This document shows positions 3,074 through 57,840 of a stretch of 64,000 nt of DNA, one piece after another. The position numbers were made by a program, and so were the translations under genes. The notes beneath the pieces are model-generated. The model had not been told where the DNA came from, ran no database searches, and saw nothing but the letters and a program-made list of their open reading frames with translations. Position 1 is the first letter of the stretch; each line of letters opens with the position of its first letter. Origin of the DNA: Minisyncoccota bacterium (GTDB lineage: Bacteria > Patescibacteriota > Minisyncoccia > Phycocordibacterales > GWA1-40-21); the NCBI GenBank assembly GCA_041659365.1, contig JBAZYH010000001.1, forward strand, positions 37,590 to 101,589, in the 5' to 3' direction.

Positions 3074-4063
3074 CTAATCACTATCATTCTCTATTTTCTT
3101 ACCATTTAAAGCTAGTGTAATAATATGATCTAGAAAATGAGGAAAAGCACAACCAATAGCTTCTAATGATTTGGGTAATAATGATTCTTTTGTTAGACCA
3201 GGAAGTGAATTAACTTCGAGTATATATATCCCCCTCTTGTGACTTACAATGAAATCAGACCTCGAATAATGTCTTAAACCAAGTACCCTATGGGCTTCTA
3301 CCGCCATATTTTGTATGGTCTCTTTTTCTTTTGAAGAAAAATTACCCGGACATACTTCCTCTGAACACCCAGAATATTTTTCATCATAACCCCAAAAGCC
3401 TATTTCTCTGGGCTTAAGAATCTCGATAGGTAAAAGTGGATAAATACTTTTTTCTCTAAAATTTTCTATGACACCACATGTTGCTTCCCTTCCTTGTATA
3501 AATTCCTCAACAATTAAAAAATCTGAATGTCTAAACGCCTCCTCCATGGCAGGAATTATATCTTTAACGGATTTAACAATAGTAACACCGAGAGAAGAAC
3601 CGCTACCCCCTGGCTTCACAATCGCTGGCATAGGGAATGTTTTAAAAATCTCTTGTGCTTTTTCTTCCGTATTTTCACCTTTTTTAACAACTATATAAAC
3701 AGGAGTTTTTAGTCCAGCTTTTATAAAAAAATCTTTTGCAAGTACTTTATTCATACCAATAGCAGAAGCCAGAGCTTTGGAACCAGTGTATTTTACACCA
3801 AAATGATTCATCAACTGTTGAACTTTTCCGTCTTCACCATATTCACCATGAAGAGCATTAAAAACAACATCAACATCTCGAAAAACTTTTGCAGGAGCTA
3901 CTGAAACACCATCAACATACCACCCACCATTTTTAGAAATAAAAACATCTGTGGGAATATATTTATCAGGTAAATTTTCTAAAACACTCTTCCCTGTTTT
4001 AAAAGAAACTTCTGATTCCCTGCTAGGTCCGCCACGTAAAACAGCTACTTTTATTCTTTTCAT
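3074..4063 (-). CDS. ddl: D-alanine--D-alanine ligase
   Basis: Full-length ATP-grasp Ddl pattern: KVAVLRGGPSRESEVSFKTG, ALHGEYGEDGKVQQLMNHFGVKYTGS, KPGGSGSSLGVT, EVNSLPGLT. Confidence 0.9.
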   Translation of the reverse strand: MKRIKVAVLRGGPSRESEVSFKTGKSVLENLPDKYIPTDVFISKNGGWYVDGVSVAPAKVFRDVDVVFNALHGEYGEDGKVQQLMNHFGVKYTGSKALASAIGMNKVLAKDFFIKAGLKTPVYIVVKKGENTEEKAQEIFKTFPMPAIVKPGGSGSSLGVTIVKSVKDIIPAMEEAFRHSDFLIVEEFIQGREATCGVIENFREKSIYPLLPIEILKPREIGFWGYDEKYSGCSEEVCPGNFSSKEKETIQNMAVEAHRVLGLRHYSRSDFIVSHKRGIYILEVNSLPGLTKESLLPKSLEAIGCAFPHFLDHIITLALNGKKIENDSD

Positions 4064-4600: not shown

Positions 4601-5932
4601 CTATTTTGTAAAGATAGACCTTTTTTCTCTATGATATTTAATAGCAAACCTATGAGCTTCACTGTTTGCAAGTAAAATATCGTTTGAATACTTTTCTGTT
4701 ATATTTTTAGATCCCAATATTGCTTTCGGTTTATGATATTCATCTTTTAAGACAGAAACAATCTCAATTTTAGATACTTCGCTCACCAAGGTCTCTCCTT
4801 TTTGAGGATTCAAGGAAAGACCTTTCTTCATTTCATTCAAAACTTTTCTAGCAACATTTATCTGAGCTTTTCCACCATCTACCACAATAATCTGAGGGAA
4901 AGCCCATTCTAAATGTTTAAACCTTCTCTCTAAAATTTCTCTCAAAGCATCAGTATCACTCCCCTTACTATTTCTTATAATAAATTTTCTATATTCATTT
5001 TTATTTATTTCTCCGTTTTCTATTACAGTCATTACACCAACATTATTTGTACCTGAAAGATGAGCTACATCATAAGCTTCAATACGAAACAGATGCGGAC
5101 TAGACGCGGATTTTATGCTGACTTGACGCGGAAAATTAAAAACATTTTCTTCATTATATTCAATATTCGACATTCTGTATTCATCTTTTATAAGAGCTAC
5201 ATCTTGAATATGATTTAGTGCGAAAATAGTTTTTTTAATATTATTTGCTTTTTCGAATTGTTGATTCTTAGCAAAAATGTTCATCTCTTTTTCAAGATTT
5301 TTTATTATTTGTTTTTTTCTACCTTCAAAAAATAATTTTATATTTTTAATGGTTTTTTGATATTCTTTCTTTGTAACCAAACCAACACAAACACCAGGAC
5401 AAAGTCCTATTTGATAATTAAAACATGGTTTATCCTGACCAATCTTACATTTATCTCTAAAAGGGAAAATTTTCCTTACTATTTTTATAGCTTCTTTAAG
5501 CTGACTTCCGTTTGTGTATGGTCCAAATTTTTCTTTAATCGAGTATTCTAATTTTTCAATATTTTCTAAATTTCTTCCACGTTCAACTAAAACTCTAGGA
5601 TAGTCCTCTTTTGTAATAACAACATAATTAAAACTCTTATTATCTTTTTCTTTTGTATTATATTTTGGTTGATGTTTTTTTATAAGCTCAGCTTCTAAAA
5701 TAATTGCCTCGAGAACTGAGTCTGTTTCTATATAATCAATTTTATCTGCAAGAAAAACCATATCCACAATAAGAGGACTTCTCATGGCTATCAAATCACT
5801 AGAAAAATAACTTTTTACTCTATCTTTAAGAGATGTAGCTTTTCCAATATACAAAATCCCTTTTCCTTTTTTGAAAAGATAGACACCAGGATTTTCTGGT
5901 AAAATATTATTTTTTATATATTGACTATTCAT
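4601..5932 (-). CDS. uvrC: excinuclease ABC subunit C (UvrC), short form lacking C-terminal HhH domain
   Basis: GIY-YIG N-terminus (PGVYLFKKGKGILYIGKATSLKDRVKSYF), UVR-like motif (FEKANNIKKTIFAL), and RNaseH-like endonuclease domain (RIEAYDVAHLSGT...IIVVDGGKAQI). 443 aa against about 600 typical. Confidence 0.85.
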   Translation of the reverse strand: MNSQYIKNNILPENPGVYLFKKGKGILYIGKATSLKDRVKSYFSSDLIAMRSPLIVDMVFLADKIDYIETDSVLEAIILEAELIKKHQPKYNTKEKDNKSFNYVVITKEDYPRVLVERGRNLENIEKLEYSIKEKFGPYTNGSQLKEAIKIVRKIFPFRDKCKIGQDKPCFNYQIGLCPGVCVGLVTKKEYQKTIKNIKLFFEGRKKQIIKNLEKEMNIFAKNQQFEKANNIKKTIFALNHIQDVALIKDEYRMSNIEYNEENVFNFPRQVSIKSASSPHLFRIEAYDVAHLSGTNNVGVMTVIENGEINKNEYRKFIIRNSKGSDTDALREILERRFKHLEWAFPQIIVVDGGKAQINVARKVLNEMKKGLSLNPQKGETLVSEVSKIEIVSVLKDEYHKPKAILGSKNITEKYSNDILLANSEAHRFAIKYHREKRSIFTK

Positions 5933-6376: not shown

Positions 6377-7975
6377 TTACTTTTGTTTCTTATTTAATAC
6401 TCTCTTTAAGTATTTTCCTGTGAAGCTCTTCCCATTCATCGCAATATCTTCAGGAGTACCTTTTGCTATAATTTGTCCACCTTTATCTCCACCTTCTGGA
6501 CCAATATCTATAACATAATCAGCAGATTTTATGAGATCCATATTGTGTTCAATAACCATTACTGTATTTCCATTGTCTACAAGCTTTTGTAAAATCTCTA
6601 TAAGTTTTTTTACATCTTCATAATGAAGACCGATAGTTGGTTCGTCCAAGAAATAAATCGTCTTATACATTCCTGGTCTGTAAAGTTCTGAGGAAATTTT
6701 TACTCTTTGTGCCTCTCCACCCGAAAGGGTTGTTGCAGACTGTCCAAGCTTCAAATATCCAAGACCAACGTCATTTAGACATTTTATTCTATCGTAAACA
6801 TTGGGTATATCTAAAAAGAAATCCTGCGCCTCTTCTACAGTCATATCAAGTACTTGATGAACATTTTTTCCTTTATATTTTACTTCCAAAGTTTCTTTCA
6901 TAAATCTTTTTCCATTACAAATATCACAAGGTACATAAACCGTAGGAAGAAAATGCATTTCAACTTCTATGTTTCCATTACCTTCACAAGTTTCGCAACG
7001 CCCACCTTTTACGTTAAAAGAAAATCTATTTGCCTTCCATCCCCTTTCACGAGCCATCACAGTTGAAGCAAAAAGCTCACGAATAAATGTCCAACATCCA
7101 GTATATGTCGCCGGGTTTGAACGAGGAGTTCTACCTATTGGAGACTGATCTATCATTACAGTTCTGCTTATATATTCTGAACCAGTAAATGACGCGCAGT
7201 TATGAGTCTCCGTTGATCTCATTTTTCTCTCAAGTCTTGCCTGAAGATTTTTATATAATATTTCATATATAAAAGAAGATTTTCCAGAACCAGAAACTCC
7301 AGTGACACAAACAAGTTTACCTAGAGGAACATCAATATCCATATTTTTAATATTAAATATCTTTCCCCCTCTTATTTTTAATTTTCCTTTATCTTGATCC
7401 CTTCTTTTTTCTGGAATCTCTATTCTATCTTCTCCACGCAAATAACTAAGAGTAAGTGATCCACTTTCATTTTTCTTTGCTGTTAAAAGTTCGTCGAGAT
7501 ATCCAGTGACGACAACTTCTCCACCATGGACCCCAGCACCAGGACCAATATCTACGATAAAATCGGAAGCATACATGGTATCTTCGTCATGTTCCACAAC
7601 AATAATAGTATTACCTAAATCTCTAAGATCTGTAAGCGTTTTTATGAGTTTGTCATTATCTCTCTGGTGTAGTCCTATGGTTGGTTCATCGAGCACATAA
7701 AGCGCACCTACGAGCCCAGAGCCGAGCTGGGAGGCAAGACGGATCCTTTGAGCCTCTCCTCCAGAAAGTGTGTTTGCTCTTCTATTTAATGATAAATATT
7801 CTATACCAACATTGGTCATAAACAAAAGTCTAGAATCTATCTCTTTCAAAATAACATTCGATATTTCTTTTTCTGTTTCAGTAAGTTTTACTTCATTAAT
7901 AAAAGTTTTTGCATCTGTAATAGATTTTGCAACGTAGTCTACAATATTTAGACCATTTATAAGTATATGAAGTGC
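6377..7975 (-). CDS. uvrA: excinuclease ABC subunit A (UvrA), C-terminal segment, in frame with the upstream segment
   Basis: The same frame continues straight after the TAA: ALHILINGLNIVDYVAKSITDAKTFINEVKLTETEKEISNVILKEIDSRLLFMTNVGIEYLSL, then LSGGEAQRIRLASQLGSGLVG, the second ABC domain and LSGGEAQRVKI. The first Met of the track ORF is at 7849. Confidence 0.85.
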   Translation of the reverse strand, partial: ALHILINGLNIVDYVAKSITDAKTFINEVKLTETEKEISNVILKEIDSRLLFMTNVGIEYLSLNRRANTLSGGEAQRIRLASQLGSGLVGALYVLDEPTIGLHQRDNDKLIKTLTDLRDLGNTIIVVEHDEDTMYASDFIVDIGPGAGVHGGEVVVTGYLDELLTAKKNESGSLTLSYLRGEDRIEIPEKRRDQDKGKLKIRGGKIFNIKNMDIDVPLGKLVCVTGVSGSGKSSFIYEILYKNLQARLERKMRSTETHNCASFTGSEYISRTVMIDQSPIGRTPRSNPATYTGCWTFIRELFASTVMARERGWKANRFSFNVKGGRCETCEGNGNIEVEMHFLPTVYVPCDICNGKRFMKETLEVKYKGKNVHQVLDMTVEEAQDFFLDIPNVYDRIKCLNDVGLGYLKLGQSATTLSGGEAQRVKISSELYRPGMYKTIYFLDEPTIGLHYEDVKKLIEILQKLVDNGNTVMVIEHNMDLIKSADYVIDIGPEGGDKGGQIIAKGTPEDIAMNGKSFTGKYLKRVLNKKQK

Positions 7976-8986
7976 TTATTCTCTAAGTCTCGCACCCTTA
8001 CACTTTTCACAATCTTCATCAGAGAAAAAATCTTTTGTTCCAAGACCATTACACTCACTACATGCTCCATAGGGTGAGTTAAAAGAAAAAAGTCTAGGCT
8101 CTATCTCAGGATAAGAATATCCATCATAAGGGCACATGAATTTTACAGAAATCATTTTCTCTTCTTCAGGAGTTTCTATCTTAAGTAAACCTTTTGACTC
8201 ATCTATAGCTTTTTCTACAGCATCAGATAAACGCTCCTTAATAGCATCTTTTTTATCCTTAAACTCACTTATATAAAATTCATCGACAAGAACGTCTATG
8301 TCGTGTTTTTTATTTTTTGAAAGAATTATTTGATCCCTAAGCTTTTTAAGTTGACCATCTATTTTTACTGATTCATATCCTTTTTCAAGTAAATCATAAA
8401 GAAGCTGATAATATTCTCCTTTTCTTCCCACAACTACAGGTGAAAAAATTTTTATTTTATCACTTACAACTTCTACTCCAAGAATTTCCCTAGAATTCTT
8501 TGGTGCTTTAATTGCATAAACTGTATGAAAAATTGTTTCTAAGATTTCTTCCTTTGAAAGCTTCTTTATTTCTCTTCCACAAACCAAACAATGTGGTCTA
8601 CCAATTCTTGCAAAAAGAATTCTAAGATAATCATAAATTTCTGTAATAGTAGCTACTGTGGAACGAGGGTTATTTGAACGAGATTTTTGATCTATAGAAA
8701 TAGCTGGTGAAAGACCAATGATTTCATCCACATCCGGCTTCTGCATCTGATGTAAGAATTGTCTTGCATATGAAGAAAGTGACTCTATATATCTACGCTG
8801 GCCTTCCGCAAAAATAGTATCAAAAGCAAAAGATGACTTCCCTGAACCGGAAAGGCCTGTAACTGCTATCATCTTATTTCGAGGCATCTCAACTGTGATA
8901 TTCTTAAGATTATGAGTTCTAGCACCCCTTACAATAATCTTGTCAGAATTATGATTTACATCTGTTTTTGTTTTTTTTGTATTCAT
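7976..8986 (-). CDS. uvrA: excinuclease ABC subunit A (UvrA), N-terminal segment ending at an in-frame TAA
   Basis: UvrA N-terminus with Walker A ([25 protein letters not shown]) and zinc-finger region ([32 protein letters not shown]). Stop TAA at 7976-7978. Confidence 0.85.
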
Positions 8987-9570: not shown

Positions 9571-9665
9571 AATTATAATTTACACATATCAGCTATAGCT
9601 GATATGTGTAAATTATAATTATTTTAATACAAGAAGACGACTCGCAAAGCGAGTCGTCTTCTTGT
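9571..9665. terminator. bidirectional terminator region between convergent genes: 50-bp perfect palindrome plus a second perfect hairpin
   Basis: aattataatttacacatatcagctatagctgatatgtgtaaattataatt (9571-9620) and acaagaagacgactcgcaaagcgagtcgtcttcttgt (9629-9665), flanked by A/T runs. Confidence 0.55.
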
Positions 9666-10098: not shown

Positions 10099-10809
10099 TT
10101 ATTCAAGTAGTAACAATATTGTAACCGTTGTCCCTTCATTTAGAGTTGAATCTATTTTAATACTACCACCATTCATTTCAAGTATTTTTCTTGTAGTATA
10201 AAGACCAATTCCACTTTTTCCAGGTTTCATTTCTATAGTATTTTCACCCTTAATAAATCCATCAAAAATATTTTTTAATCTTTCTGGGGAAATACCGACA
10301 CCTGTATCTTTTACAATTAGTCTTAAACTACTACTAATTTTATCAACAGAGATAATAACCTTACCGTTTGGCGAATATCTAAGTGCGTTGTCTACAACGT
10401 TTATAATAGCAAGTTCTATCGTCTCCATATCAGCAAAGGCGGTGGCCTCAGTACATCTATTATACTCAACTATATTATTTTTTTCTTGAACTAAATATTT
10501 TAAATTTTTTAAGACATTATCTATCAATAAACATAGATTAAATCTCTCTTTTTTAAAATCAAGCTTTTTACTGTCTTTAAAAAGATTTAATACTTCCTCT
10601 GTAATATTTATAGACTCCAAAACTTTATTATAAGACTCTTTTACTAATTGAATATCTCCGTCCTTTTTTTCTGAAATAATTGACTCAAGTAGCCACCTTG
10701 CACCATTTAATGGAGTACGAAGTCTATGAACAAGAGCCATAATTAATGTTTTATCAAAACTACACATCCTTAGATCTTCTTCCTTTTCCTTTCTCTTAAA
10801 AAAATTCAT
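10099..10809 (-). CDS. sensor histidine kinase (soluble; HisKA + HATPase_c)
   Basis: H-box LVHRLRTPLNGARW, N-box NVVDNALRYS, G-boxes KDTGVGISPERL and GKSGIGLY. Overlaps or abuts the receiver gene, so a two-component operon. Confidence 0.8.
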   Translation of the reverse strand: MNFFKRKEKEEDLRMCSFDKTLIMALVHRLRTPLNGARWLLESIISEKKDGDIQLVKESYNKVLESINITEEVLNLFKDSKKLDFKKERFNLCLLIDNVLKNLKYLVQEKNNIVEYNRCTEATAFADMETIELAIINVVDNALRYSPNGKVIISVDKISSSLRLIVKDTGVGISPERLKNIFDGFIKGENTIEMKPGKSGIGLYTTRKILEMNGGSIKIDSTLNEGTTVTILLLLE

Positions 10810-10860: not shown

Positions 10861-10982
10861 AACCTGGATTGCTTCGCTTCGCTCGCAAAGACACAAATTA
10901 TTAATAATGAAAAAACAGATTTCATTTTGTGAAATCTGTTTTTATTATATGTCTTTGCGAGCGAAGCGAAGCAATCCAGGTT
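10861..10982. repeat. composite palindromic element: 33-bp inverted arms (aacctggattgcttcgcttcgctcgcaaagaca) flanking a terminator-like hairpin
   Basis: Arms at 10861-10893 and 10950-10982 are perfect reverse complements. Core: aaaaaacagatttcattttgtgaaatctgttttt. The same architecture recurs at 24442-24553. Confidence 0.6.
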
Positions 10983-13078: not shown

Positions 13079-13154
13079 TGTCATTCCCGTGAAGACGGTA
13101 ATCCATGAATATTATATTTCTGTCATTGCGAGGTAGTCCGTCGCAATCCAGGTT
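13079..13154. repeat. two short palindromic repeat elements (TGTCATT-hairpin-AATCC family)
   Basis: tgtcattcccgtgaagacggtaatccatg (13079-13107) and tgtcattgcgaggtagtccgtcgcaatccaggtt (13121-13154). Confidence 0.6.
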
Positions 13155-13289
13155 ATATTAACTGATTCTATATTACCCTTGAATGAATAATAATAACATT
13201 TGACAATCAAACAATGATTATGCTACATTTTAAAAGGAAAGACAAGTGTTTTTTTTAAAAAAAAACACAAAGAAAAAGGATAGTACGTT

Positions 13290-13592
13290 ATGGAACTGTC
13301 AAAAGAAAGAATGGGTAAGATTGCAATATTAATGCTCAAGAAAATCTATGAGAGACACCAGAGTAAAATGGGTATTCTCGGCCACATCAATGCCGTGGAG
13401 TTCGTGGAAGATATTTCAGCTGATTGTGCCGACCTTCCCAAGGAAGACGACATCAAGCTCGAAGAATACTTCGCTGTAATGAGTAAGATTCTTCCGAAAG
13501 AAAGTCAGGGAACATACGATGAGGCAGTGAAAAATTTCCTGGAGAAAAAATTAGTTGCTACAAAGTCACCCGAACCCGAATCGAAAAGCTGA
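13290..13592 (+). CDS. hypothetical small acidic protein; GC-rich (about 42%) relative to genome
   Basis: RBS aaaaaggat; clear codon periodicity; followed by GC-rich terminator aaaaccgcgtgcacgacacacgcggttttctt (13655-13690). Confidence 0.5.
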   Translation: MELSKERMGKIAILMLKKIYERHQSKMGILGHINAVEFVEDISADCADLPKEDDIKLEEYFAVMSKILPKESQGTYDEAVKNFLEKKLVATKSPEPESKS

Positions 13593-13654
13593 TCTTTTTT
13601 ACAGCATTTTGACAAAGGTTTTCAAGGACGGAACAATCATCCCTACTTGAAAAT

Positions 13655-13690
13655 CAAAAACCGCGTGCACGACACACGCGGTTTTCTTAT
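13655..13690 (+). terminator. intrinsic terminator (copy 1 of an identical pair)
   Basis: ccgcgtg-cacgaca-cacgcgg stem-loop plus T-run. An identical 36-bp sequence sits at 14204-14239. Confidence 0.6.
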
Positions 13691-13795
13691 TTTTTAAAAA
13701 TTGAGTTCAAACTAAAATTGACTTAATCTGACTTATTATGTAGTCTTTTAACTAGGAAATCAAGTTCTCAAACAAAACGAGTAAAAGGAGCCAGT

Positions 13796-14182
13796 ATGAA
13801 AAGGTTTTTAGTCCGATCATCGAAAGAGAACCAGTTTTGGACTTTTTTGATCAAAAAAAGCCGTAACGGAAAAATGGGGTTATGGTTTGTGATGGTGTAT
13901 GTTAAGAGTCTCAACTTTATTACCCTTTCCCCCGTCTGGAGAAAGATTGAAAATAATGGGTTACCAAAAAATATTGGTACCCATGGCCGTTTCATTCTTG
14001 GTGGAGACATCAAGCTACTTGGTGGTGACGATGCTGGATCAAATGAAAAAGAATACATCTCACAAACAACACAAAGTGGCTCTGTTAAACACACACTTCC
14101 TTGTGACGGTTTTGGCAGAGAAAAAATATTTCGCACTCTTCTCTTACTTTCAAAAGAAAGCTCTGGAGAACAGGTTGTCTAA
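13796..14182 (+). CDS. hypothetical protein; moderately GC-rich
   Basis: Consensus RBS aaaaggagcc, 5 nt, then ATG; followed by the second copy of the identical terminator (14204-14239). Overlapping alternative-frame ORFs (13899-14462 +, 13768-14136 -) are judged spurious. Confidence 0.4.
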   Translation: MKRFLVRSSKENQFWTFLIKKSRNGKMGLWFVMVYVKSLNFITLSPVWRKIENNGLPKNIGTHGRFILGGDIKLLGGDDAGSNEKEYISQTTQSGSVKHTLPCDGFGREKIFRTLLLLSKESSGEQVV

Positions 14183-14257
14183 GGCCCAAAACCTTAGGTT
14201 AATCAAAAACCGCGTGCACGACACACGCGGTTTTCTTCTGTCACTTAAGCGACAAAA

Positions 14258-14725
14258 TCAGTCGAATCGTTTACAATTTCTACCTACAAACCAAGGTTTT
14301 TTCTCTAAATATTCAATAATAAACTCCCCTTTTCTTTTGTGGACATTATACCTTGCCTTAAAAGTTAACCATCCACAAATATCAACATTTCCCTTTTTAA
14401 TTACGTCAACCGGTAATTTAAAAAGAGAACAAAGAGTCAGTCTTGATTCTTTATCAAAATAACCAGATAAAAAATAATCACTATAATTATATTCTATATT
14501 TTCAATACCTGTAATTACAACAGATATAGCAATTGCAGTTGTACTTTTTTCCCATCCTTTTATTGGTTGTAAGAGAATTTTAAAAATTACAGGAAAACCA
14601 AAAGGCGAATTTCCCCCACTACTACCTAATGATGGTAAAGTAATTGAAAGCGAAGTTAAAACACTATGAAGTGAAGGTCCATCATCGATACTTGTAGTTA
14701 CCAGTTCTCTTTTTTCGGTAGTCAT
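14258..14725 (-). CDS. hypothetical protein
   Basis: Good RBS (aaaaaggagagtcgtATG); 155 aa; no family recognised. Confidence 0.45.
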   Translation of the reverse strand: MTTEKRELVTTSIDDGPSLHSVLTSLSITLPSLGSSGGNSPFGFPVIFKILLQPIKGWEKSTTAIAISVVITGIENIEYNYSDYFLSGYFDKESRLTLCSLFKLPVDVIKKGNVDICGWLTFKARYNVHKRKGEFIIEYLEKKPWFVGRNCKRFD

Positions 14726-14885
14726 ACGACTCTCCTTTTTGAATGAACAAGCGTATTAGTTGATGAATACACGATACATCCTTATTTCCAGTTTTACCTA
14801 GAAACGACCCAACCATACAGTCAGGAATTAATTCATTTTTATATTATATATAATATGTAGTAATGTCAATTTTTAGGATTATAAA

Positions 14886-14921
14886 TTTTACACATATACG
14901 CCATGGCGTATATGTGTAAAA
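14886..14921. repeat. perfect palindrome TTTTACACATATACGCCATGGCGTATATGTGTAAAA (copy 1 of 3)
   Basis: Perfect inverted repeat centred on CCATGG, flanked by T- and A-runs. It lies downstream of the tgt stop, so it is probably a bidirectional terminator. Confidence 0.6.
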
Positions 14922-14940
14922 TTAATTTATTAAAATACTT

Positions 14941-15066
14941 AACCTGGATTGCGACGTCAGAATACTTCCTCGCAATGACAGAAGGGGAATTTTGCGAAGC
15001 AAAATTCCCCTCTCTCCTATTTATTTTCTTTTTGTCATTGCGAGTTACTACGTCGCAATCCAGGTT
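14941..15066. repeat. two short palindromic repeat elements in opposite orientation, plus a central hairpin
   Basis: aacctggattgcgacgtcagaatacttcctcgcaatgaca (14941-14980); ggggaattttgcgaagcaaaattcccc hairpin (14984-15010); tgtcattgcgagttactacgtcgcaatccaggtt (15043-15066). Confidence 0.55.
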
Positions 15067-15076
15067 AATTTTTATT

Positions 15077-17123: not shown

Positions 17124-17138
17124 TATAATTTATCCATG
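17124..17138 (+). promoter_or_regulatory. extended -10 (TGaTATAAT) ending 6 nt before the LOG start codon; possible leaderless transcript
   Basis: gatgtgatataatttatccATG; no room for a Shine-Dalgarno. Confidence 0.3.
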
Positions 17139-17867
17139 ATTTTTAAAAATATTTTTTCTAATAAAAAGGAATCCAATGTAGTAAAGGCAGTAAATAATTA
17201 TATATCAGCTGGCCCCATAACTACCAAAAGGATGGAAGAAATTATTAAAAAAAGGACAAAAACCACTGATAGAGAGTTTGAAAAAGGATATAAATTAATA
17301 AAGAAATATCCAAGATCAGTAAGTATCCTAGGTTCAGCAAGATTCAAGGAAGATAATATATACTACAAGCAAGCACGATCTCTAGCATATAGAATAGTAA
17401 AAGAACTAAAATATGCTGTAGTTACTGGTGGTGGTCCGGGGGTAATGGAAGCAGCAAATAGAGGGGCTTTTGAAGGGGAAGGTGTTTCTCTTGGTATCAC
17501 TATCAAACTTCCAAAAGAACAGGGTACGAACAAATATGTTACTGAATTTGCAGAATTTGAATATTTTTTCAGTAGAAAAACAATATTGTTTTTCTCAGCA
17601 GAAACTTATATTTATTATCCTGGAGGTTTTGGTACTATGGATGAATTTTTTGAAATAGTAACATTAATACAAACCAAAAAAATACCTAAAGTTCCAGTAG
17701 TTCTTGTTGGAAAAGAATTCTGGCAACCGCTTCTTGCTCTCATTAAAGAAGAATTATATGAAGATAATGCAACTATAAACGAAATCGACATGGAACTTTA
17801 TAAAATAGTTGATTCTGAAGATGAAATATTAGATATAATTCGAAAAGCTCCATATAGACAGGAATGA
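17136..17867 (+). CDS. LOG-family protein (Rossmann-fold nucleotide-binding; lysine-decarboxylase-like / cytokinin riboside 5'-monophosphate phosphoribohydrolase family)
   Basis: Motifs VVTGGGPGVMEAANRGA and YYPGGFGTMDEFFE. Uses a TGA stop. Confidence 0.8.
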   Translation: MIFKNIFSNKKESNVVKAVNNYISAGPITTKRMEEIIKKRTKTTDREFEKGYKLIKKYPRSVSILGSARFKEDNIYYKQARSLAYRIVKELKYAVVTGGGPGVMEAANRGAFEGEGVSLGITIKLPKEQGTNKYVTEFAEFEYFFSRKTILFFSAETYIYYPGGFGTMDEFFEIVTLIQTKKIPKVPVVLVGKEFWQPLLALIKEELYEDNATINEIDMELYKIVDSEDEILDIIRKAPYRQE

Positions 17868-17966: not shown

Positions 17967-18326
17967 TTATATTCTATATTCCTCAAGTTTTTTTGCAACA
18001 GCAAGGGCTGTTAAATTTTCTTTTGTTTGTGCTGCACCAGGTAAATTTTCCCATAATTCTAAAATTGACTTAGAAAAAGCTTGCGCATTTTTAGCAAAAT
18101 TAATCCATCCTTCATTAGGACCAAATTCATCTTCTGATACACTAACTGTTTCTGGAGTAATATTAAACTCAGCACCATTTCTATCCCAAGTGAATTTACC
18201 TTCTCCAACCTTTTTTATTCCTTCAAGAGATTCACCATAAATTGGAGCATCCATGTATGCAACTACAGCTTCATCAAACAAGGGTTTATATATTTCTTTT
18301 TTCTCAACATCTTTAATTTCTTCCAT
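17967..18326 (-). CDS. hypothetical acidic protein
   Basis: 119 aa; no family recognised. Terminator-like hairpin aaaaccacttaaattaagtggttttt lies downstream at about 17915-17945. Confidence 0.4.
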   Translation of the reverse strand: MEEIKDVEKKEIYKPLFDEAVVAYMDAPIYGESLEGIKKVGEGKFTWDRNGAEFNITPETVSVSEDEFGPNEGWINFAKNAQAFSKSILELWENLPGAAQTKENLTALAVAKKLEEYRI

Positions 18327-18461
18327 ATTTTTATTATTAAATTACTAATACCCTAATTTTACCCCCCCTATAACTTTTTGCAATAGCAATAACAAAAAGT
18401 TCGGGCGAACACTTTTTACTAAAAGTGTTTTAGCCCCGAAAAATAATGCAAGCATATATTG

Positions 18462-18633
18462 TGTCATTCCCGTACAGACGAGAATCTAGTATTAATCAAT
18501 ACAACCTGGATTCCCTTTTTCAAGAGAATGACAATACAAAAAACTAATTAACCTGGATTGCTTCGTTCCTCGCAAAGACAATACTCATACAAATACTAAT
18601 ACTGGATTCCCGCCTACGCGGGAACGACAATAC
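18462..18633. repeat. cluster of four short palindromic repeat elements (TGTCATT...AATCC family), 9-16 bp apart
   Basis: tgtcattcccgtacagacgagaatctagtatt; aacctggattccctttttcaagagaatgacaatac; aacctggattgcttcgttcctcgcaaagacaatac; actggattcccgcctacgcgggaacgacaatac. Confidence 0.6.
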
Positions 18634-18640
18634 AAAAAAC

Positions 18641-18677
18641 GAGGAGACACCTTTTTGAGGATTTAAGGTCTCACCTC
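18641..18677. repeat. conserved imperfect hairpin element GAGGAGACACC-loop-GGTCTCACCTC (copy a), flanked by A- and T-runs
   Basis: caaaaaacGAGGAGACACCtttttgaggatttaaGGTCTCACCTCgtttttt. Other copies at 25861-25897, 30035-30071 and 30629-30665; partial copy at 46805-46828. Confidence 0.6.
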
Positions 18678-18735
18678 GTTTTTTGTTATTTTCCGCGTAA
18701 GGTCAGCGTGGTTCCGCGTCTTGTCCGCGATAGAT

Positions 18736-19467
18736 CTATTTCAACCCAAATGAAGCTTTAACCGTAACCATAATATTTTTATTTATTTTTGAAGTGTCAT
18801 AAGTTCCATAATCTGAAATTTCAAGGGAATTTGAAGGAAGCACCTGTACAACTCCACTTGAAGCAGATTTCAAAGTACCAACTTTCATGCCTGTACTTTC
18901 TGCCATTTTATTTGCTCTGGCCATTGCATCTTTTATAGCATCACTAAGCAAGCTAACTCTAACTTCAGGAAGCTTTGAATAATAATATTCAACAGGATTT
19001 ACACTAAAAATAACCCCTTGATTTATAAGTTGTTGTGCAGACTGAGCTAAAGATGTTATTTTTGTAATATCCTTAGACGAAACTTCAACCTGCTGTCTTA
19101 AAGTGTATTCTTTTTCTGTTTGAATATTATTATTGTAATTATAATTTTCAAACATAGATACAGTAGAGATTGTTATATCTTTTTCATCTATACCCTGTGT
19201 TTTTAAAAAACTTTTTACTTTAACAAGATCACTCGCAATTTGTTCATAACCCCACTTAAGAGAACTAACCTTTACTATTCTTGTAAATTCACCCGTAAAT
19301 TTTGCATTGTCAGAAACAACCTGTAGGCTAGCAGAGCCAGTCACAGTAAGTGAATCGGAAGAATATCTTGAGCTATAAAATACGGTTGAAAAAATTATTG
19401 TAGACAAAACAAGTCCCCCAGTAATAATAGCGTAACCAAGTATATTTATATTTTTTGTATTTTCCAT
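18736..19467 (-). CDS. SIMPL/DUF541-like periplasmic protein (putative)
   Basis: N-terminal TM, then a domain with the order LTVTGSASLQVVSDNAKFTGEF...ITISTVSMFENY...VQVLP that resembles YggE/BP26-type SIMPL proteins. The match is judged by eye only. Confidence 0.45.
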   Translation of the reverse strand: MENTKNINILGYAIITGGLVLSTIIFSTVFYSSRYSSDSLTVTGSASLQVVSDNAKFTGEFTRIVKVSSLKWGYEQIASDLVKVKSFLKTQGIDEKDITISTVSMFENYNYNNNIQTEKEYTLRQQVEVSSKDITKITSLAQSAQQLINQGVIFSVNPVEYYYSKLPEVRVSLLSDAIKDAMARANKMAESTGMKVGTLKSASSGVVQVLPSNSLEISDYGTYDTSKINKNIMVTVKASFGLK

Positions 19468-24441: not shown

Positions 24442-24615
24442 CTAGATTGCTTCGCTTTGCTCGCAAAGACACACAAAAAAAATAACACAAAGAGGTTTTT
24501 GCAAAGCAAAAACCTCTTTGTGTCTTTGCGAGCAAAGCGAAGCAATCCAGGTTTGTATTTATTTTTTTGTTGTCATTCCCATGCAGACAGCCTGCCCGCC
24601 TTAGGAGGGGGAATC
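24442..24615. repeat. composite palindromic element (inverted 30-bp arms around a 37-bp hairpin) plus one more short palindromic element
   Basis: ctagattgcttcgctttgctcgcaaagaca / cacaaagaggtttttgcaaagcaaaaacctctttgtg / tgtctttgcgagcaaagcgaagcaatccaggtt; then tgtcattcccatgcagacagcctgcccgccttaggagggggaatc (24571-24615). Sits between convergent genes. Confidence 0.6.
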
Positions 24616-25118: not shown

Positions 25119-25825
25119 CTAAATAAATCCCTTTAAATAAGCTAGTCTTTCCCTTTCTGGAAACTTTTCTATAGCATATCTAAGCATAGTTCTTGGGATC
25201 TTTCTATAATATTTATTTAAAAAAAACTCTTCATCTTTTAAAGATCTCTTTCCTACTTCTCGAAGCATCCAACCGACAGCTTTATGTATAAGGTCATGTT
25301 TATCCCCCATCAATATCTCAGCAATTTTAAAAACATCTTTATACTCTCCATTTTTAATAAAAGTATAAGTAGAAATAATAGAAATTCTTTTTTCCCAAAG
25401 GTTTTTTGATACAGCAAATTTATACAACAAATATTTCGGCTTATCTATCAAGTATTCACCGACTATTCTAGGAGCTGAAAGATCTACCAAATCCCAATTG
25501 TTAGCCTGCTTTGCATTTTTAATATAAAATTCAAAGACTTTTGCTTTTTCTAGACCATTTGCCTTTTCAAATTTATCTACAAGTATAAATAAAGCGCAAA
25601 TCCTTTCTTCGTGTATTTTTGAATACAAAATTTTCTTAACTTCTGATAATTTTAGATCTCTATATTTTTAGCAACCTTTCTCGTATTAGGAACAATAATT
25701 CCTAGAAATATATCTCCTTCTCCATACTCCCCCTTTTTTGTTTTAAAAAACCTCTGCAAAATATTCGCCTTTTCAAAATTTGCAAGACTTATTAACTCAC
25801 TTTTTATATCTTCCACTTTAGCCAT
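25119..25825 (-). pseudogene. DNA alkylation repair glycosylase AlkD/AlkC-like (HEAT-repeat), disrupted by a frameshift at a T5/A5 homopolymer
   Basis: N-terminal fragment 25652-25825 ([57 protein letters not shown]) and C-terminal 169-aa ORF 25119-25628 (..SKIHEERICALFIL..WDLVDLSAPRIVG..IHKAVGWMLREVGKR..) are in different frames. Adding one base to the run at 25665-25669 fuses them into one protein. Confidence 0.6.
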
Positions 25826-25860
25826 ATCCTTATTATACTCATTTTAATGAAATAAAAAAT

Positions 25861-25897
25861 GAGGAGACGCCTTTTTTAATTCTCAAGGCCTCACCTC
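25861..25897. repeat. conserved imperfect hairpin element (copy b) with compensatory change
   Basis: GAGGAGACGCCttttttaattctcaaGGCCTCACCTC; A>G on the left arm is matched by T>C on the right arm, compared with the other copies. Confidence 0.6.
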
Positions 25898-25971
25898 ATT
25901 TTTTAAATTATAAAAATATTTATCAATACTTTATAAACTTTAAACTTTTTACTTTTAACTACTTCAGTTAA

Positions 25972-27546: not shown

Positions 27547-28188
27547 TTATCGAATACAACGAAATAAACCTATATCACCATCATTGTTATATGTTAAATT
27601 AGGAACAACAACACCATTACCATATTCAACAATATAAAACATTCCACCATCTTCTGTTTCTGTACTAGATAAATAAAAACCAGCTTCACTATTTCTTTTA
27701 AATTTTAAATCATTATTTCCAAAAACTTGATAAGTTAAAGTTTCAATAATTTCATCTTTTGTTGGAAGTCTTTTACCCTTAGAAAAACATTTATCTTTTG
27801 CGTAAGAATAAACACCCTTATCATCTTCATCATCCCATAAATTAAGACTATATTCTGAACATTTATCTGTTGTCTCTCCACAATTAATACCAAAATACAT
27901 TAACTGAGGATTAGGAGTAATTTCTGGTATATAAACCTTACTTTCGTCAGATAATGCTACTTCTAAATCATTTATGGTACCCCCAGGATAATATCCGTTA
28001 TCAGAATAAAACATATTTATAGCATTTTTAACTTGTGCAAGCTGTTGTATTCCAGCAGTTTCTTTTGCTTTTTCTTTTGCATTATTTAAAGAAACTATAA
28101 CAATAGTAGTTAAAAACCCAATGATTGATACAACAACCAGTATTTCTATAAGAGTAAAACCTTTTAAAAATTTATTCCTATTTTTCAT
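27547..28188 (-). CDS. type IV pilin-like protein (prepilin-type N-terminal cleavage/methylation domain)
   Basis: N-terminus KGFTLIEILVVVSIIGFLTTIVIVSL is the class III signal (G/FTLIE) plus hydrophobic helix; the C-terminal globular domain has several Cys. Confidence 0.7.
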   Translation of the reverse strand: MKNRNKFLKGFTLIEILVVVSIIGFLTTIVIVSLNNAKEKAKETAGIQQLAQVKNAINMFYSDNGYYPGGTINDLEVALSDESKVYIPEITPNPQLMYFGINCGETTDKCSEYSLNLWDDEDDKGVYSYAKDKCFSKGKRLPTKDEIIETLTYQVFGNNDLKFKRNSEAGFYLSSTETEDGGMFYIVEYGNGVVVPNLTYNNDGDIGLFRCIR

Positions 28189-29233: not shown

Positions 29234-29923
29234 TTAATGATTATACTTAATATTCATCTCTCTATCCATATCGTCCATATATTCTTTTGTGGTTTTAAGT
29301 TTTATATCTTTTATTGATAAAACAGCATTTACTTCACCGCGACTAATTAATTTAAATACTAATTGCAATTTTGTTGATTCAAATATTGGTTCAGCTGTAC
29401 CATCCATATAATCATCACGAGACATCTGAAGATCTGAACCAATATATCCAATTATTTCAGAATTGTCATTTAAATCTTTAAGAGATACAACAAAATAGTC
29501 TCCATCACCAGCCTTGGTAAATTTATAATTAAAAGTCAAAACTCCACCATCAAAATCTTTCGGAACATCAACTACTGCAAACACACCAGCATTAGCTTCT
29601 TCTTTTATGAGATACTCACCATTATTAAATATAACATCCCCAAATGTTTCAAAAATATTTTTTATTGTGTTTGTATTAAATTCACTTATTGATAAAACTT
29701 TTGATTTTATTGTTGTCGTCCCAACATTTCCATCAGAAACTGTCATATTTACTACTTTATCATTATCAATAATATTATCAGTAGTCGTTGTTGCTATTAT
29801 GGAGATAGTATTTTGTACATTTATTTTTTTATTTACATAAATATAAAAACCCCCACCAATTAATAACAAAATAATAACTGCAATTATTATTGAAAGTTTA
29901 AAATATTTTTGATTATTTTTCAT
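29234..29923 (-). CDS. hypothetical membrane-anchored extracytoplasmic protein
   Basis: N-terminal TM; Thr/Asn-rich linker; 150-aa domain; no family recognised. Confidence 0.4.
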   Translation of the reverse strand: MKNNQKYFKLSIIIAVIILLLIGGGFYIYVNKKINVQNTISIIATTTTDNIIDNDKVVNMTVSDGNVGTTTIKSKVLSISEFNTNTIKNIFETFGDVIFNNGEYLIKEEANAGVFAVVDVPKDFDGGVLTFNYKFTKAGDGDYFVVSLKDLNDNSEIIGYIGSDLQMSRDDYMDGTAEPIFESTKLQLVFKLISRGEVNAVLSIKDIKLKTTKEYMDDMDREMNIKYNH

Positions 29924-30034
29924 AATAAAATTATATCAAAATCTATTTAATAATGATACTTTAATTTATTTTATAAATACCACTTTGTCTTTACGAGTAG
30001 AAAAAAATAATCCAGATTTAATAAAACAAAAATC

Positions 30035-30071
30035 GAGGAGACACCTTTTTGAAGATTTAAGGTCTCACCTC
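30035..30071. repeat. conserved imperfect hairpin element (copy c)
   Basis: aaaaatcGAGGAGACACCtttttgaagatttaaGGTCTCACCTCaattttt; downstream of the RRM gene stop region. Confidence 0.6.
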
Positions 30072-30131
30072 AATTTTTGTTTAAAAAAAAACACACTTTC
30101 GTGTGTTTTTTTAAAAAACTCTAAGATAATA

Positions 30132-30398: not shown

Positions 30399-30628
30399 TC
30401 TCTAAATATATTAACACTAACTTAATAAAACCCTAAAATTTTCCAGGAGATAGAAAGATGACTAACCTTTCAAAAATATCCAAGATACTTCTTAGTTATT
30501 GACAAGTATATACCATATTGAATATTTTGTCAACATCAAAAATATCCTATTTTATAAGGGTATCTGTTGATAACTTTAGTTTATACAAACTTAATTACCT
30601 TCTATAGATAAATAGAAATAAAAAAACT

Positions 30629-30665
30629 GAGGAGACACCTTTTTAAAGATTTAAGGTCTCACCTC
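30629..30665. repeat. conserved imperfect hairpin element (copy d), immediately downstream of rpoD
   Basis: aaaaaactGAGGAGACACCtttttaaagatttaaGGTCTCACCTCggtttttt. Confidence 0.6.
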
Positions 30666-30681
30666 GGTTTTTTCTACTTAT

Positions 30682-45494: not shown

Positions 45495-46756
45495 TACTGT
45501 CCATTTTCAAATATTATTTTTTCTTTTCCATCTTTCAAATAAGCAGTGATTTTTCTATCAGTTGTACTAATAATATCATTATGTACAGAAGAATTATTAT
45601 AACCAAGTTTTTCCCAAGTATTTTTTGAAACTTTATCTGGATTTCCTATATAACAATCGTGATATGAATTACCAATAGCAATATGCGTATTACCATATTT
45701 ACCACCAAAATTTTCATCATATAAGGTATTCGCCATAAACTTTGTTATCCTTGAAAATCTTTTATCGGTCATAGAAAATTCTCCGATTTTATTTGCTCCT
45801 TCAGTAGCAATAATCTCTTTTAGAAGTTTTTCATTCTTTTCCGCCTTACTTTTTATAATAATACCATCTTTAAATTCGAGTTCTATACCTTCAATAAAAT
45901 TCCCAAAAGCATAAAGCGGCTGATTAAATTTAACATGACCATTTGTACCCCTCCAATCTGGAGAAGTAAAAATCTCAAAACTCGGGATATTTCTTCCACT
46001 ACCACCAACCCATTTTCTCTTATCACCTATCTTAATCCATAAGTCTGTACTCTCACTTTCAATATGAACTTGATCAATATCCATATTGTTTAATTTCTCC
46101 TTATAAATCTCCATTTCATCATAAACAGATTTCCATTTTGCAACAGGGTCTTTCTCATCTAAGAAACATGATTTAATTATTTGATTCCAATATTCCTTAA
46201 AAGTCATTCTAGACTCCTTAGCAATCTCCTCAGTAGCATAAGTACCCAAAGTCCAAGTAAATTTTCCTGCATTTTCTTTTTTGTCTCTCCACTCTCTCCA
46301 TGGTTTAAAAATCTTACTTCTAGACATTATTTTTTTGGAATCTATTTTTTGTAATGATCTTAAGTTAGTTTCACTATCAATAAAAATAGAATGATCAACT
46401 TGATTGAGCAAACCTTTCATATAAGAAGCTGGAAAAAATTCTACTTGATGGTCTTCAGAATACAAATAAAAATCTTGATCGACGTTATAATCTTTATCAT
46501 TTGAAGGACGGTAATCAGATATAACATGTCCACCAGCTTTCCATATAGCCCTTCTTATCTCTATATACAAAGGTTTAGCAACTTCCTGTACTATAAGTTG
46601 AACTACCTCGCCCTTTTTAATTCCAGCTCCACTACCCAAAGCAAAATTTACTAATACATTTGCATAATTTTCTAAAATTCTTTTTGACGGGCAGTAAACT
46701 TTTTTCATGTGATTTTGTATTTTTGAAAAAATGAGGTGATGATCTTGCAAGATCAT
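45485..46756 (-). CDS. aminopeptidase, M29 (AmpS/aminopeptidase T) family
   Basis: N-terminal ILENYANVLVNFALGSGAGIKKGEVVQL and downstream HIAIG/metal-ligand blocks resemble M29 aminopeptidases. Judged by eye. Confidence 0.65.
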   Translation of the reverse strand: MILQDHHLIFSKIQNHMKKVYCPSKRILENYANVLVNFALGSGAGIKKGEVVQLIVQEVAKPLYIEIRRAIWKAGGHVISDYRPSNDKDYNVDQDFYLYSEDHQVEFFPASYMKGLLNQVDHSIFIDSETNLRSLQKIDSKKIMSRSKIFKPWREWRDKKENAGKFTWTLGTYATEEIAKESRMTFKEYWNQIIKSCFLDEKDPVAKWKSVYDEMEIYKEKLNNMDIDQVHIESESTDLWIKIGDKRKWVGGSGRNIPSFEIFTSPDWRGTNGHVKFNQPLYAFGNFIEGIELEFKDGIIIKSKAEKNEKLLKEIIATEGANKIGEFSMTDKRFSRITKFMANTLYDENFGGKYGNTHIAIGNSYHDCYIGNPDKVSKNTWEKLGYNNSSVHNDIISTTDRKITAYLKDGKEKIIFENGQYCF

Positions 46757-46804
46757 GTCGCGTAGTGTCCGTTGAAACGCGACGCAAACTAATAGAAAAC
46801 TTCC
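46752..46804 (-). promoter_or_regulatory. conserved leader hairpin abutting the M29 start codon (second copy at 58091-58142)
   Basis: mRNA sense: GGAAGTTTTCTATTAGTTTGCGTCGCGTTTCAACGGACACTACGCGAC-ATG. Stem GTCGCGT/ACGCGAC here; GTCGCGC/GCGCGAC in the other copy, a compensatory pair. Confidence 0.45.
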
Positions 46805-46843
46805 TTAAATCTTAAAAAGGTGTCTCCTCATTTTTTCTTCTCT

Positions 46844-57418: not shown

Positions 57419-57452
57419 TTCACACATATACGCCATGGCGTATATGTATGTT
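57419..57452. repeat. 34-bp palindrome (copy 2, one mismatch) overlapping the stop codon of the Cas2-like ORF
   Basis: ttcacacatatacgccatggcgtatatgtatgtt. Confidence 0.6.
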
Positions 57453-57840
57453 AATTAAAAATATTATTTTTTTCTGAATATTCTTTTGCTAATCTAAAAG
57501 TTTTTAAATTATCTTTCAATCCTATAGATTTAATATAATCAACAAAACTTTTTGGTAACGGAGAAGGTCCAACCCAAACACTCCTCTGAATCATTACATA
57601 ACCAAACTTTTTTAAATGTCTACGAAGCCAATCTCGTTCAGTCTTTTGATCGTGTGAGATATCATACATAACAATTAATTTTTTAGGTGATTCTTTTTTG
57701 AAATTTGATTGAAACGAAACATTGTATGTATCTCTTACTTTATTTTTTCTATTTTCTTTTTTTCTTTTATCAAAATCAGGACTACTTGTTGGAATACCAA
57801 AAGAATTAACCCACACCCCTTTATAGTTATGTTTACTCAT
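57451..57840 (-). CDS. Cas2-like ferredoxin-fold small protein with a 50-aa basic N-terminal extension; solitary, no other cas genes or array
   Basis: Residues about 54-100 (KKLIVMYDISHDQKTERDWLRRHLKKFGYVMIQRSVWVG) match the Cas2 beta-alpha-beta core (lvvYDis..krRrkvaklLkryG.rvQySVFec). C-terminal LKDNLKTFRL resembles the Cas2 DSVRIYRL strand. Bracketed by identical palindromes. Confidence 0.4.
   Translation of the reverse strand: MSKHNYKGVWVNSFGIPTSSPDFDKRKKENRKNKVRDTYNVSFQSNFKKESPKKLIVMYDISHDQKTERDWLRRHLKKFGYVMIQRSVWVGPSPLPKSFVDYIKSIGLKDNLKTFRLAKEYSEKNNIFN

Follow-up and report, generated by a model that had tools for sequence, protein, structure and literature searches.

Genomic context of the hairpin copies

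The window analysed here, a single stretch of 64,000 nt (64 kb), has a G+C content of about 32% and carries nearly all of its genes on the minus strand. These genes are ordinary chromosomal ones (rpoB, rpoC, dnaG, rpoD, uvrABC, ddl, tgt), accompanied by genes for a ClpB-like AAA protein, pilin-like proteins and an RRM protein, and a homology search found the RpoD of the window to be 100% identical to the MAG protein P0001 (Candidatus Paceibacterota bacterium), after exact-match look-ups of the RpoD and RRM proteins had given no record. Most genes are preceded by TGnTATAAT placed 6-7 nt before the ATG (for example upstream of 918-1841, 3074-4063, 10099-10809, 17136-17867, 27547-28188 and 29234-29923); the mRNAs are therefore leaderless, each gene having its own promoter. 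A ribosome-binding site of the form AAAGGAGG occurs in a few genes only (4143, 14258, 42509, 48013). The RRM-protein gene is preceded, at 30399-30533, by a promoter (TTGACA-17-TATACT) and by a 5' leader about 100 nt long, which is near-identical in five relatives though the flanking intergenic DNA is scrambled, and which may be a regulatory leader RNA. Two further genes are divided: uvrA is present in the window as two ORFs (6377-7849 and 7976-8986), and the DNA-alkylation repair gene (25119-25825) is split into ORFs of 57 and 169 aa, an intact version of 243 aa being found in the related loci L009 and L161.

Among these genes an imperfect hairpin, a repeat unit of about 50 nt with a 37-nt core and an 11-nt loop, occurs in five intergenic copies, or about one per 13 kb. 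All of them lie 15-75 nt past stop codons, namely those of the SIMPL, DEAD, RRM, rpoD and Band-7 genes, which have no common theme. The copies and the hairpins beside them are listed below.

18634..18684 (core 18641-18677), minus strand: copy a, 59 nt past the SIMPL/DUF541 stop codon (gene at 18736-19467, minus strand)
25854..25904 (core 25861-25897), minus strand: copy b, 75 nt after the DEAD-box helicase stop; the variable pair is G-C
30028..30078 (core 30035-30071), minus strand: copy c, 61 nt after the RRM stop and directly behind the generic RRM terminator
30079..30108, minus strand: resident generic RRM terminator, aaaaaaacacacgaaagtgtgttttttt; conserved in relatives without copy c
30538..30563, minus strand: older resident terminator downstream of rpoD, atacccttataaaataggatattttt
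30622..30672 (core 30629-30665), minus strand: copy d, 17 nt after the rpoD stop codon
46725..46837, minus strand: copy e, in opposite orientation, 15 nt after the Band-7/SPFH stop
46740..46804, minus strand: insert of about 65 nt of foreign sequence in copy e, between AAGG and TCACCTC

The core of copy a, read directly from the window, is GAGGAGACACCTTTTTGAGGATTTAAGGTCTCACCTC; on the mRNA it appears as GAGGUGAGACCUU..AAGGUGUCUCCUC followed by a U-run, and its orthologue in a relative lies at L016:1216-1252. The next gene after copy b is leaderless, its TATAAT lying 23 nt downstream of the copy. The stem of the older rpoD terminator differs by one mutation from the intact versions in L158, L159 and L162.

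Copy e had been taken, in a preceding reading made from the sequence only, for a half-copy at 46805-46828. It is actually a whole minus-strand copy, the interior of which is split by an insertion. Its basal arms (46725-46739 and 46823-46837, 15 nt) are 93% complementary with the A·A as the sole mismatch, its left arm and loop occupy 46805-46829, and the arms are 83 nt apart because the foreign sequence has been inserted inside. The insert, unique within the window, contains two small hairpins, GTCGCG..CGCGAC and ATGATCTTG/CAAGATCAT. The stretch 46748-46805 represents a third repeat family (ATGTCGCGTAGTGTCCRTTGAAACGCGAC..AAACTAAKAGA..TTCC), members of which are found in L159 (RpoD 95% identical) at intergenic sites after the RRM and DEAD genes. 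The listed ATG of the M29 aminopeptidase ORF (46756) falls inside the insert, and this gene probably starts instead at the ATG near 46708, which has TACAAAAT in front of it.

Sequence and fold of the repeat

The pattern GAGGAGACNCC-N10-20-GGNCTCACCTC matches four times in the window, against 0.00 matches expected from 100 shuffles of the sequence. The stem comprises 13 pairing positions, and copies a-d all have A·A as the fifth and C·C as the eighth of them; on the mRNA these copies read 5'-GAGGUGAGNCCUU..AAGGNGUCUCCUC-3' followed by a U-run, and the mispairs become U·U and G·G. Stem position 9 has changed from A-T to G-C in copy b, by A>G in the left arm and T>C in the right. All four full copies, and copy e as well (5/5), are flanked by an A-run 5' and a T-run 3'. 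The five copies are each single, without pairs or clusters, and none of them lies inside any credibly called gene of the window. In these respects the sequence-only reading was borne out: the repeated imperfect hairpin, its A-run/T-run context and the compensatory change in copy b are all as it had described them, and the loop sequences match those that it had listed.

A secondary structure is strongly indicated by the comparison of 21 copies from the window and two MAGs, in which 96.8% of cells are paired and two-sided changes occur at six pairs, values of pairing and covariation that were reached by none of 500 shuffles. The predicted RNA folding energies range from -20.6 to -27.3 kcal/mol, with z from -4.8 to -8.5 on both strands, and the mRNA-sense fold is more stable than its complement by 0.8-5 kcal/mol. 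A scan of the window at Rfam gathering thresholds returned tRNA only and no match to the hairpin, and an E-value scan of 18300-18760 gave sub-threshold chance matches only. Literature searches on terminators, REPs, leaderless genes and uptake sequences of Patescibacteria, CPR or Saccharibacteria brought up nothing relevant.

With its A-run, G+C-rich stem and T-run, 15-75 nt past a stop codon, the repeat does have the look of a bidirectional terminator, as proposed earlier, and judging by these features the copies most likely act as bidirectional intrinsic terminators in the genome of the window. About a dozen other A-run/stem/T-run hairpins were counted there, so that the family makes up roughly one quarter of the terminator-like hairpins of the window. 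The family shares with ordinary bidirectional intrinsic terminators a G+C-rich stem-loop with an A-run 5' and a T-run 3', the vicinity of a stop codon and a position between convergent or tandem genes. Ordinary terminators, however, have unrelated sequences and favour perfect stems, whereas the family has one sequence with fixed mispairs, a long loop (11 nt) and related subtypes without a U-tract. As such subtypes are not classical intrinsic terminators, termination is not the common function of the family as a whole.

Distribution beyond the window

Scanning a genome collection with the strict core produced credible matches in two low-GC MAGs only, 20 copies together; one of them (JBAYAG01) is labelled Paceibacterota, and the other (CAYZNH01) is labelled Saccharibacteria, yet is syntenic with the window. 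Six more matches to the strict pattern, in high-GC genomes, look like chance and were set aside. A covariance model run on 172 kb of selected loci recovered 24 copies with scores of at least 59 bits (59-86 bits), the next-best matches, at about 30 bits, being unrelated generic terminators. All 24 copies of this lineage have kept both mispairs, A·A and C·C, while the outermost core pair, position 9 and the adjacent flanking bases covary.

A wider scan of metagenomes employed a degenerate pattern in which three variable pairs were left free and 20 bases fixed, and it returned at least 120 loci. The pattern admits any 13-bp hairpin with the right left arm; the perfect-stem matches and the high-GC group are probably unrelated to the family, and the conservation of the 20 fixed bases in the wider family is partly an artefact, because the pattern itself fixed those positions. 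Among the matches listed, A·A stands at position 5 in 52 of 97 distinct hairpins, positions 8 and 9 are paired or mispaired according to lineage, and the contigs with the core range from 30 to 56% GC, including a Kaiserbacteria-like contig. For one mid-GC contig that was tested, the best named protein matches belong to the Patescibacteria group and to Candidatus Kaiserbacteria. Three subtypes can be told apart by their arms on the mRNA strand.

This lineage: GAGGUGAGACC / GGUGUCUCCUC, mispairs U·U and G·G
G-type: GAGGUGAGACC / GGUCUCUCCUC, mispair U·U only
Mid-GC type: GAGGUGACUCC / GGUGUCUCCUC, two U·U mispairs

A second covariance model brought in copies that break the pattern, having AAGG..CCTT, or CCTC/GAGG instead of CCTT/AAGG, as well as copies with G+C-rich hairpins inserted apically. 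Tandem clusters are found in the mid-GC related contigs L041, L105 and L136. The flanks vary but pair (aaaaaac/gtttttt, ttccc/gggaa), and some related subtypes (e.g., L080, L097) carry a T-run 5' and an A-run 3', or G+C-rich flanks. The conserved part is thus the basal helix with its A·A, the apex being free; the C·C, located in a zone of 2 bp where relatives vary freely, is a feature of the lineage, not of the family. The proposal that both mismatches recur in every copy consequently stands within this lineage, where the covariance-model search recovered all copies with both intact, and fails for the wider family, in which only the A·A is general.

Long-term conservation of the core is seen at an orthologous locus at which the hairpin lies between a xerC-like gene and xth, both in L081/L080 (34-35% GC) and in L034 (54% GC). 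The Xth proteins are 65% identical between the 34% and 54% GC genomes; L081, L080 and L034 share an identical core and some of the loop, and their flanks differ and still pair. This unchanged core, together with the conserved mispair, the covariation and the recurrence of the core in other Paceibacterota lineages, upholds the earlier suggestion of a constraint that acts on both sequence and structure and goes beyond termination. Two sets of matches were rejected: 11 on viral contigs, which are chance-like and have neither the CCTT/AAGG closing pairs nor the family context, and the high-GC metagenome group (GGAAGGAGGTGATGCCTTGACC...), apparently the RBS and start of an orthologous gene that matches the pattern by chance.

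Gain and loss among close relatives

The family is distributed unevenly among genomes that are otherwise close to that of the window.

L161/L160 (RpoD 97%): copy b has its orthologue here, and another copy follows the 823-aa AAA gene; the sites behind rpoD and RRM are empty
L162/L163 (RpoD 98%): no copy in 28 kb
L158 (same MAG as other family copies): no copy in 20 kb; generic terminators only at three sites
L154-L157 and L159 (other relatives): no copies

The window, unlike L161/L160, has no copy after the 823-aa AAA gene, and a search of six other relatives (126 kb, filters off) found no copy. Copy b has an orthologue in L009/L161, where it adjoins an older terminator, and is absent in L158 and L159; the site of copy c is empty in L158, L159, L161 and L162, and that of copy d in L158, L161 and L162. 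In L162 and L159 a different hairpin occupies the position of copy d after rpoD. The loci downstream of the DEAD gene form a series, in which L158 has the resident terminator only, L009 the terminator and the hairpin, and the window the hairpin only. Comparison of filled and empty sites showed no clear target-site duplication, the flanks being too diverged to align.

Units of 37 nt that are identical at non-homologous sites are not independent of one another, and the unit must therefore have been copied as DNA. Of the readings considered, that of a mobile, REP-like element is the best supported by the sequences compared, and its best support comes from these differences in presence and absence between near-identical genomes. 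It was not among the candidates of the sequence-only reading.

Orientation and alternative functions

Orientation was scored against the nearest upstream gene, taken as the closest one with its 3' end towards the hairpin; by this count, 29 copies stand in mRNA sense and eight do not (p = 7.5e-4). G·U wobbles are likewise unequally distributed, with 26 on the mRNA-sense strand versus 10 on the other (p = 0.011, for copies that are not independent). Both biases fit selection for a better RNA hairpin as well as a lagging-strand-template mechanism, and the two readings are inseparable in these data because the directions of genes and of replication are confounded.

A role at the RNA level would make the hairpin a site for a conserved RNA-binding protein or RNase (RNase III-type processing or a 3'-end stabiliser), with the U·U basal helix read by sequence and copying as an incidental process. 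It would be in line with an orientation that tracks transcription (29 to 8), with the greater wobble content of the mRNA-sense strand (26 to 10), with the identity of the core and part of the loop at the orthologous site of genomes with 65% identity, with a fixed basal and free apical part and with the persistence of the core in subtypes without a U-tract. Nevertheless, this explanation appears rather unlikely. Many close relatives have the same core genes and no copy of the family, which speaks against a universal factor that depends on the hairpin; the genes preceding the copies have no theme in common; the identical 37-nt units at non-homologous sites would still need DNA copying; and a single-stranded-DNA mechanism also predicts G·T wobbles and strand bias.

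It is improbable that the repeat is a protein site at the DNA level, such as an operator or a nucleoid-protein or recombinase site, read on the duplex or on a cruciform. The half-sites GAGGAGA and GAGGTGA do stand in inverted order, the stem of the Kaiserbacteria-like subtype is two-fold symmetric as a duplex (GGAGWCACC on both strands), and beside the xerC-like gene a conserved copy precedes a -10 box by 13 nt. However, the distance to downstream promoters runs from 13 to 31 nt or more, the neighbouring genes are unrelated to each other, close relatives do without the family, and the arms covary as a helix, flanks included, which no protein consensus explains.

Known uptake sequences are 9-12-mers that occur about once per kb, many of them within genes, and in Neisseria they often form inverted pairs that act as terminators. 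This resemblance and the pilin-like N_methyl proteins encoded nearby would favour a DNA-uptake signal for transformation via the type IV pilus machinery, one of the candidates of the sequence-only reading, which had pointed to type IV pilin-like proteins. The data speak against it and leave it very improbable: five copies in 64 kb (about one per 13 kb), none in a credibly called gene, orientation-biased relative to transcription, lacking both in the 126 kb searched in relatives and at sites of relatives with 97-98% RpoD identity, and consisting of a structured 37-50 nt element instead of a short word.

That the copies are ordinary terminators, alike by chance or convergence, is hardly credible even with about a dozen other A-run/stem/T-run hairpins in the window, given that generic ones are perfect-stemmed, unrelated and score at most 30 bits versus 59-86 bits for the family, that 0.00 chance matches are expected, and that identical loops and mismatches recur at non-homologous sites.

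Links with translation were also considered. The window contains no 16S gene. The arm TCACCTC(C) presumably equals the 16S rRNA 3' end, and the complementary sequence, GGAGGTGA, makes a perfect Shine-Dalgarno. The possibility of a mini-ORF in the loop was rejected, the codon behind the arm being TTA, TTC or TTG, so that there is no consistent start. Translational coupling was rejected as well, the genes downstream being leaderless and starting more than 25 nt further on. The family is missing from close relatives, which makes a universal role linked to the ribosome unlikely. A fixed promoter element was discarded too, because the -10 box is found at distances of 13 to 31 nt from the hairpin.

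A probable mobile palindrome with a second role in termination

The repeat reported earlier is genuine, and it amounts to more than a plain terminator. The explanation that best covers the observations, and one that we consider probable, is a dispersed family of REP/MITE-like mobile palindromes of about 50 nt, present in some Candidatus Paceibacterota lineages and doubling as a terminator.

The unit combines a basal helix, GAGGAGA..TCACCTC, which is conserved and contains the A·A mismatch (U·U on the usual mRNA strand), with a lineage-variable zone of 2 bp and a free apical part. Once transcribed, the hairpin with its U-tract would release RNA polymerase in either direction, and termination of this kind would close transcription units among leaderless genes whose promoters are set against the ATG. 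New copies would arise when the DNA unit is copied into the short stretch between a stop codon and its resident terminator, which the newcomer could then supplant. Mismatches shared by the copies would reflect descent from a master copy, and the A·A probably also marks the folded strand for a copying or processing factor, a role proposed by analogy with the REPs of E. coli.

In these REPs two conserved stem mismatches form a bulge required by TnpA(REP), and a 5' GTAG motif is essential too (PMC8266576). By definition REPs carry a conserved unpaired tetranucleotide, usually GTAG, 5' of the palindrome (PMC8266576). No such conserved unpaired tetranucleotide lies beside the hairpin in the family copies compared, and no transposase-family match and no Y1_Tnp were found among the ORFs of the window, which covers 64 kb of the genome. 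With neither a GTAG-type tetranucleotide nor a RAYT found, the family is filed as REP-like in behaviour and not as a member of REP/RAYT. The A·A that it has kept may serve as a recognition mark read by an enzyme.

Likeness to the REP/REPIN-RAYT systems of Proteobacteria is nonetheless considerable. It includes imperfect extragenic palindromes of 20-50 nt, found mostly after genes, many copies per genome with vertical inheritance and slow gain and loss, a conserved stem mismatch, a strand or orientation bias and, in some related contigs, tandem clusters. The family departs from these systems in having no GTAG-type tetranucleotide, no RAYT in the window and far fewer copies. REPs usually differ between species, whereas the core of the family is common to lineages of very different G+C, and its hosts are Patescibacteria.

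Imperfect hairpins are also found at the subterminal ends of IS200/IS605 elements, where the irregularities let a Y1 HUH transposase recognise one folded DNA strand, with orientation tied to the lagging-strand template. In contrast to these, the family hairpins are single and flank no transposase gene. A regex screen of six-frame ORFs from about 1.2 Mb of loci brought up one IS200-like Y1 transposase, at L111:5232-5894 (PF01797, E = 5.9e-9), and a tblastn search with it found only itself in the same 1.2 Mb. The hairpin of this element, ATAGAGTCTAAAGCTCTAT (19 nt), is present in three copies, at both ends and once inside the gene, and is absent from the window and 155 other loci; having a different hairpin of its own that occurs only there, this transposase is ruled out as the partner of the family. 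The element (L111:5224-5937) lies between uvrB and tgt in the closest MAG and is missing from the window, the counterpart region of which (2 kb, 13085-15076) contains unrelated ORFs bracketed by CTCGCAATGACA repeats. No insertion sequence that might be the parent of a MITE was seen.

Rickettsia palindromic elements measure 100-150 bp and often lie in coding sequence, and the Correia elements of Neisseria have terminal inverted repeats and a TA duplication. Like the family, these elements and the uptake-sequence terminators of Neisseria are short palindromic repeats of reduced or competent genomes that spread in small genomes and were co-opted as terminators; the likeness is one of description, with no sequence similarity seen.

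One may tentatively go further and suppose that Paceibacterota possibly own a self-spreading, ready-made terminator. It would be REP-like and moved by an enzyme other than a classical RAYT, with the A·A/T·T mismatch read on one folded strand. At least four palindrome families, this one included, would then insert after stop codons and into the loops of one another, continually rebuilding the boundaries of leaderless units in sub-megabase genomes.

Other palindromic repeats of the window

Several further palindromes were noticed in the course of the analysis. A second repeat family is defined by the 12-mer CTCGCAAWGACA, with 10 occurrences in the window versus 0 expected. Three inverted pairs (10882-10961, 14969-15044 and 24460-24532), with arms such as CCTGGATTGCGACG..CTCGCAATGACA, enclose a variable terminator-like hairpin and make up palindromes of about 80-130 nt; single copies lie at 13121, 18569, 43647 and 63074. 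As in the main family, the base is conserved and the apex free.

Another hairpin, AAGGTCTYTCC..GGARAGACCTT (4785-4827), is located inside uvrC (4601-5932, minus strand) and has the same loop, CCTTTTTGAGGATTCAAGG, as the main family. It is in frame, encodes KKGLSLNPQKGETL and looks like an insertion; hairpins with its arms occupy the post-rpoD position in L162 and L159, and the arms resemble the helix of the main family closed at the opposite end. With the same loop and different arms, this hairpin (4789-4823) recalls the in-frame insertions of Rickettsia palindromic elements, although the case is a weak one (23 bits, E = 0.018). Perfect palindromes TTTACACATATACGCCATGGCGTATATGTGTAAA and one variant (9573-9618, 14884-14923 and 57424-57447) look like operators, and one palindrome of this type lies directly upstream of a PaaX/Cas2-like gene (57451-57840).

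Implications

The genomes of Patescibacteria are among the smallest and most streamlined, and the usual view holds them to be repeat-poor. The 64-kb window nevertheless contains at least three small palindromic repeat families, and close relatives carry more. One of these families accounts for about a quarter of the terminator-like hairpins of the window and is gained and lost between near-identical genomes; if the mobile-palindrome reading is correct, this would be a concrete example of a mobile element that supplies the boundaries of transcription units. On the practical side, the repeats can serve as strain-level markers for MAGs, and, the family not being in Rfam, a model of it would improve the annotation of such genomes. 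The conserved mismatch, finally, offers a defined handle for finding the factor that reads the hairpin.
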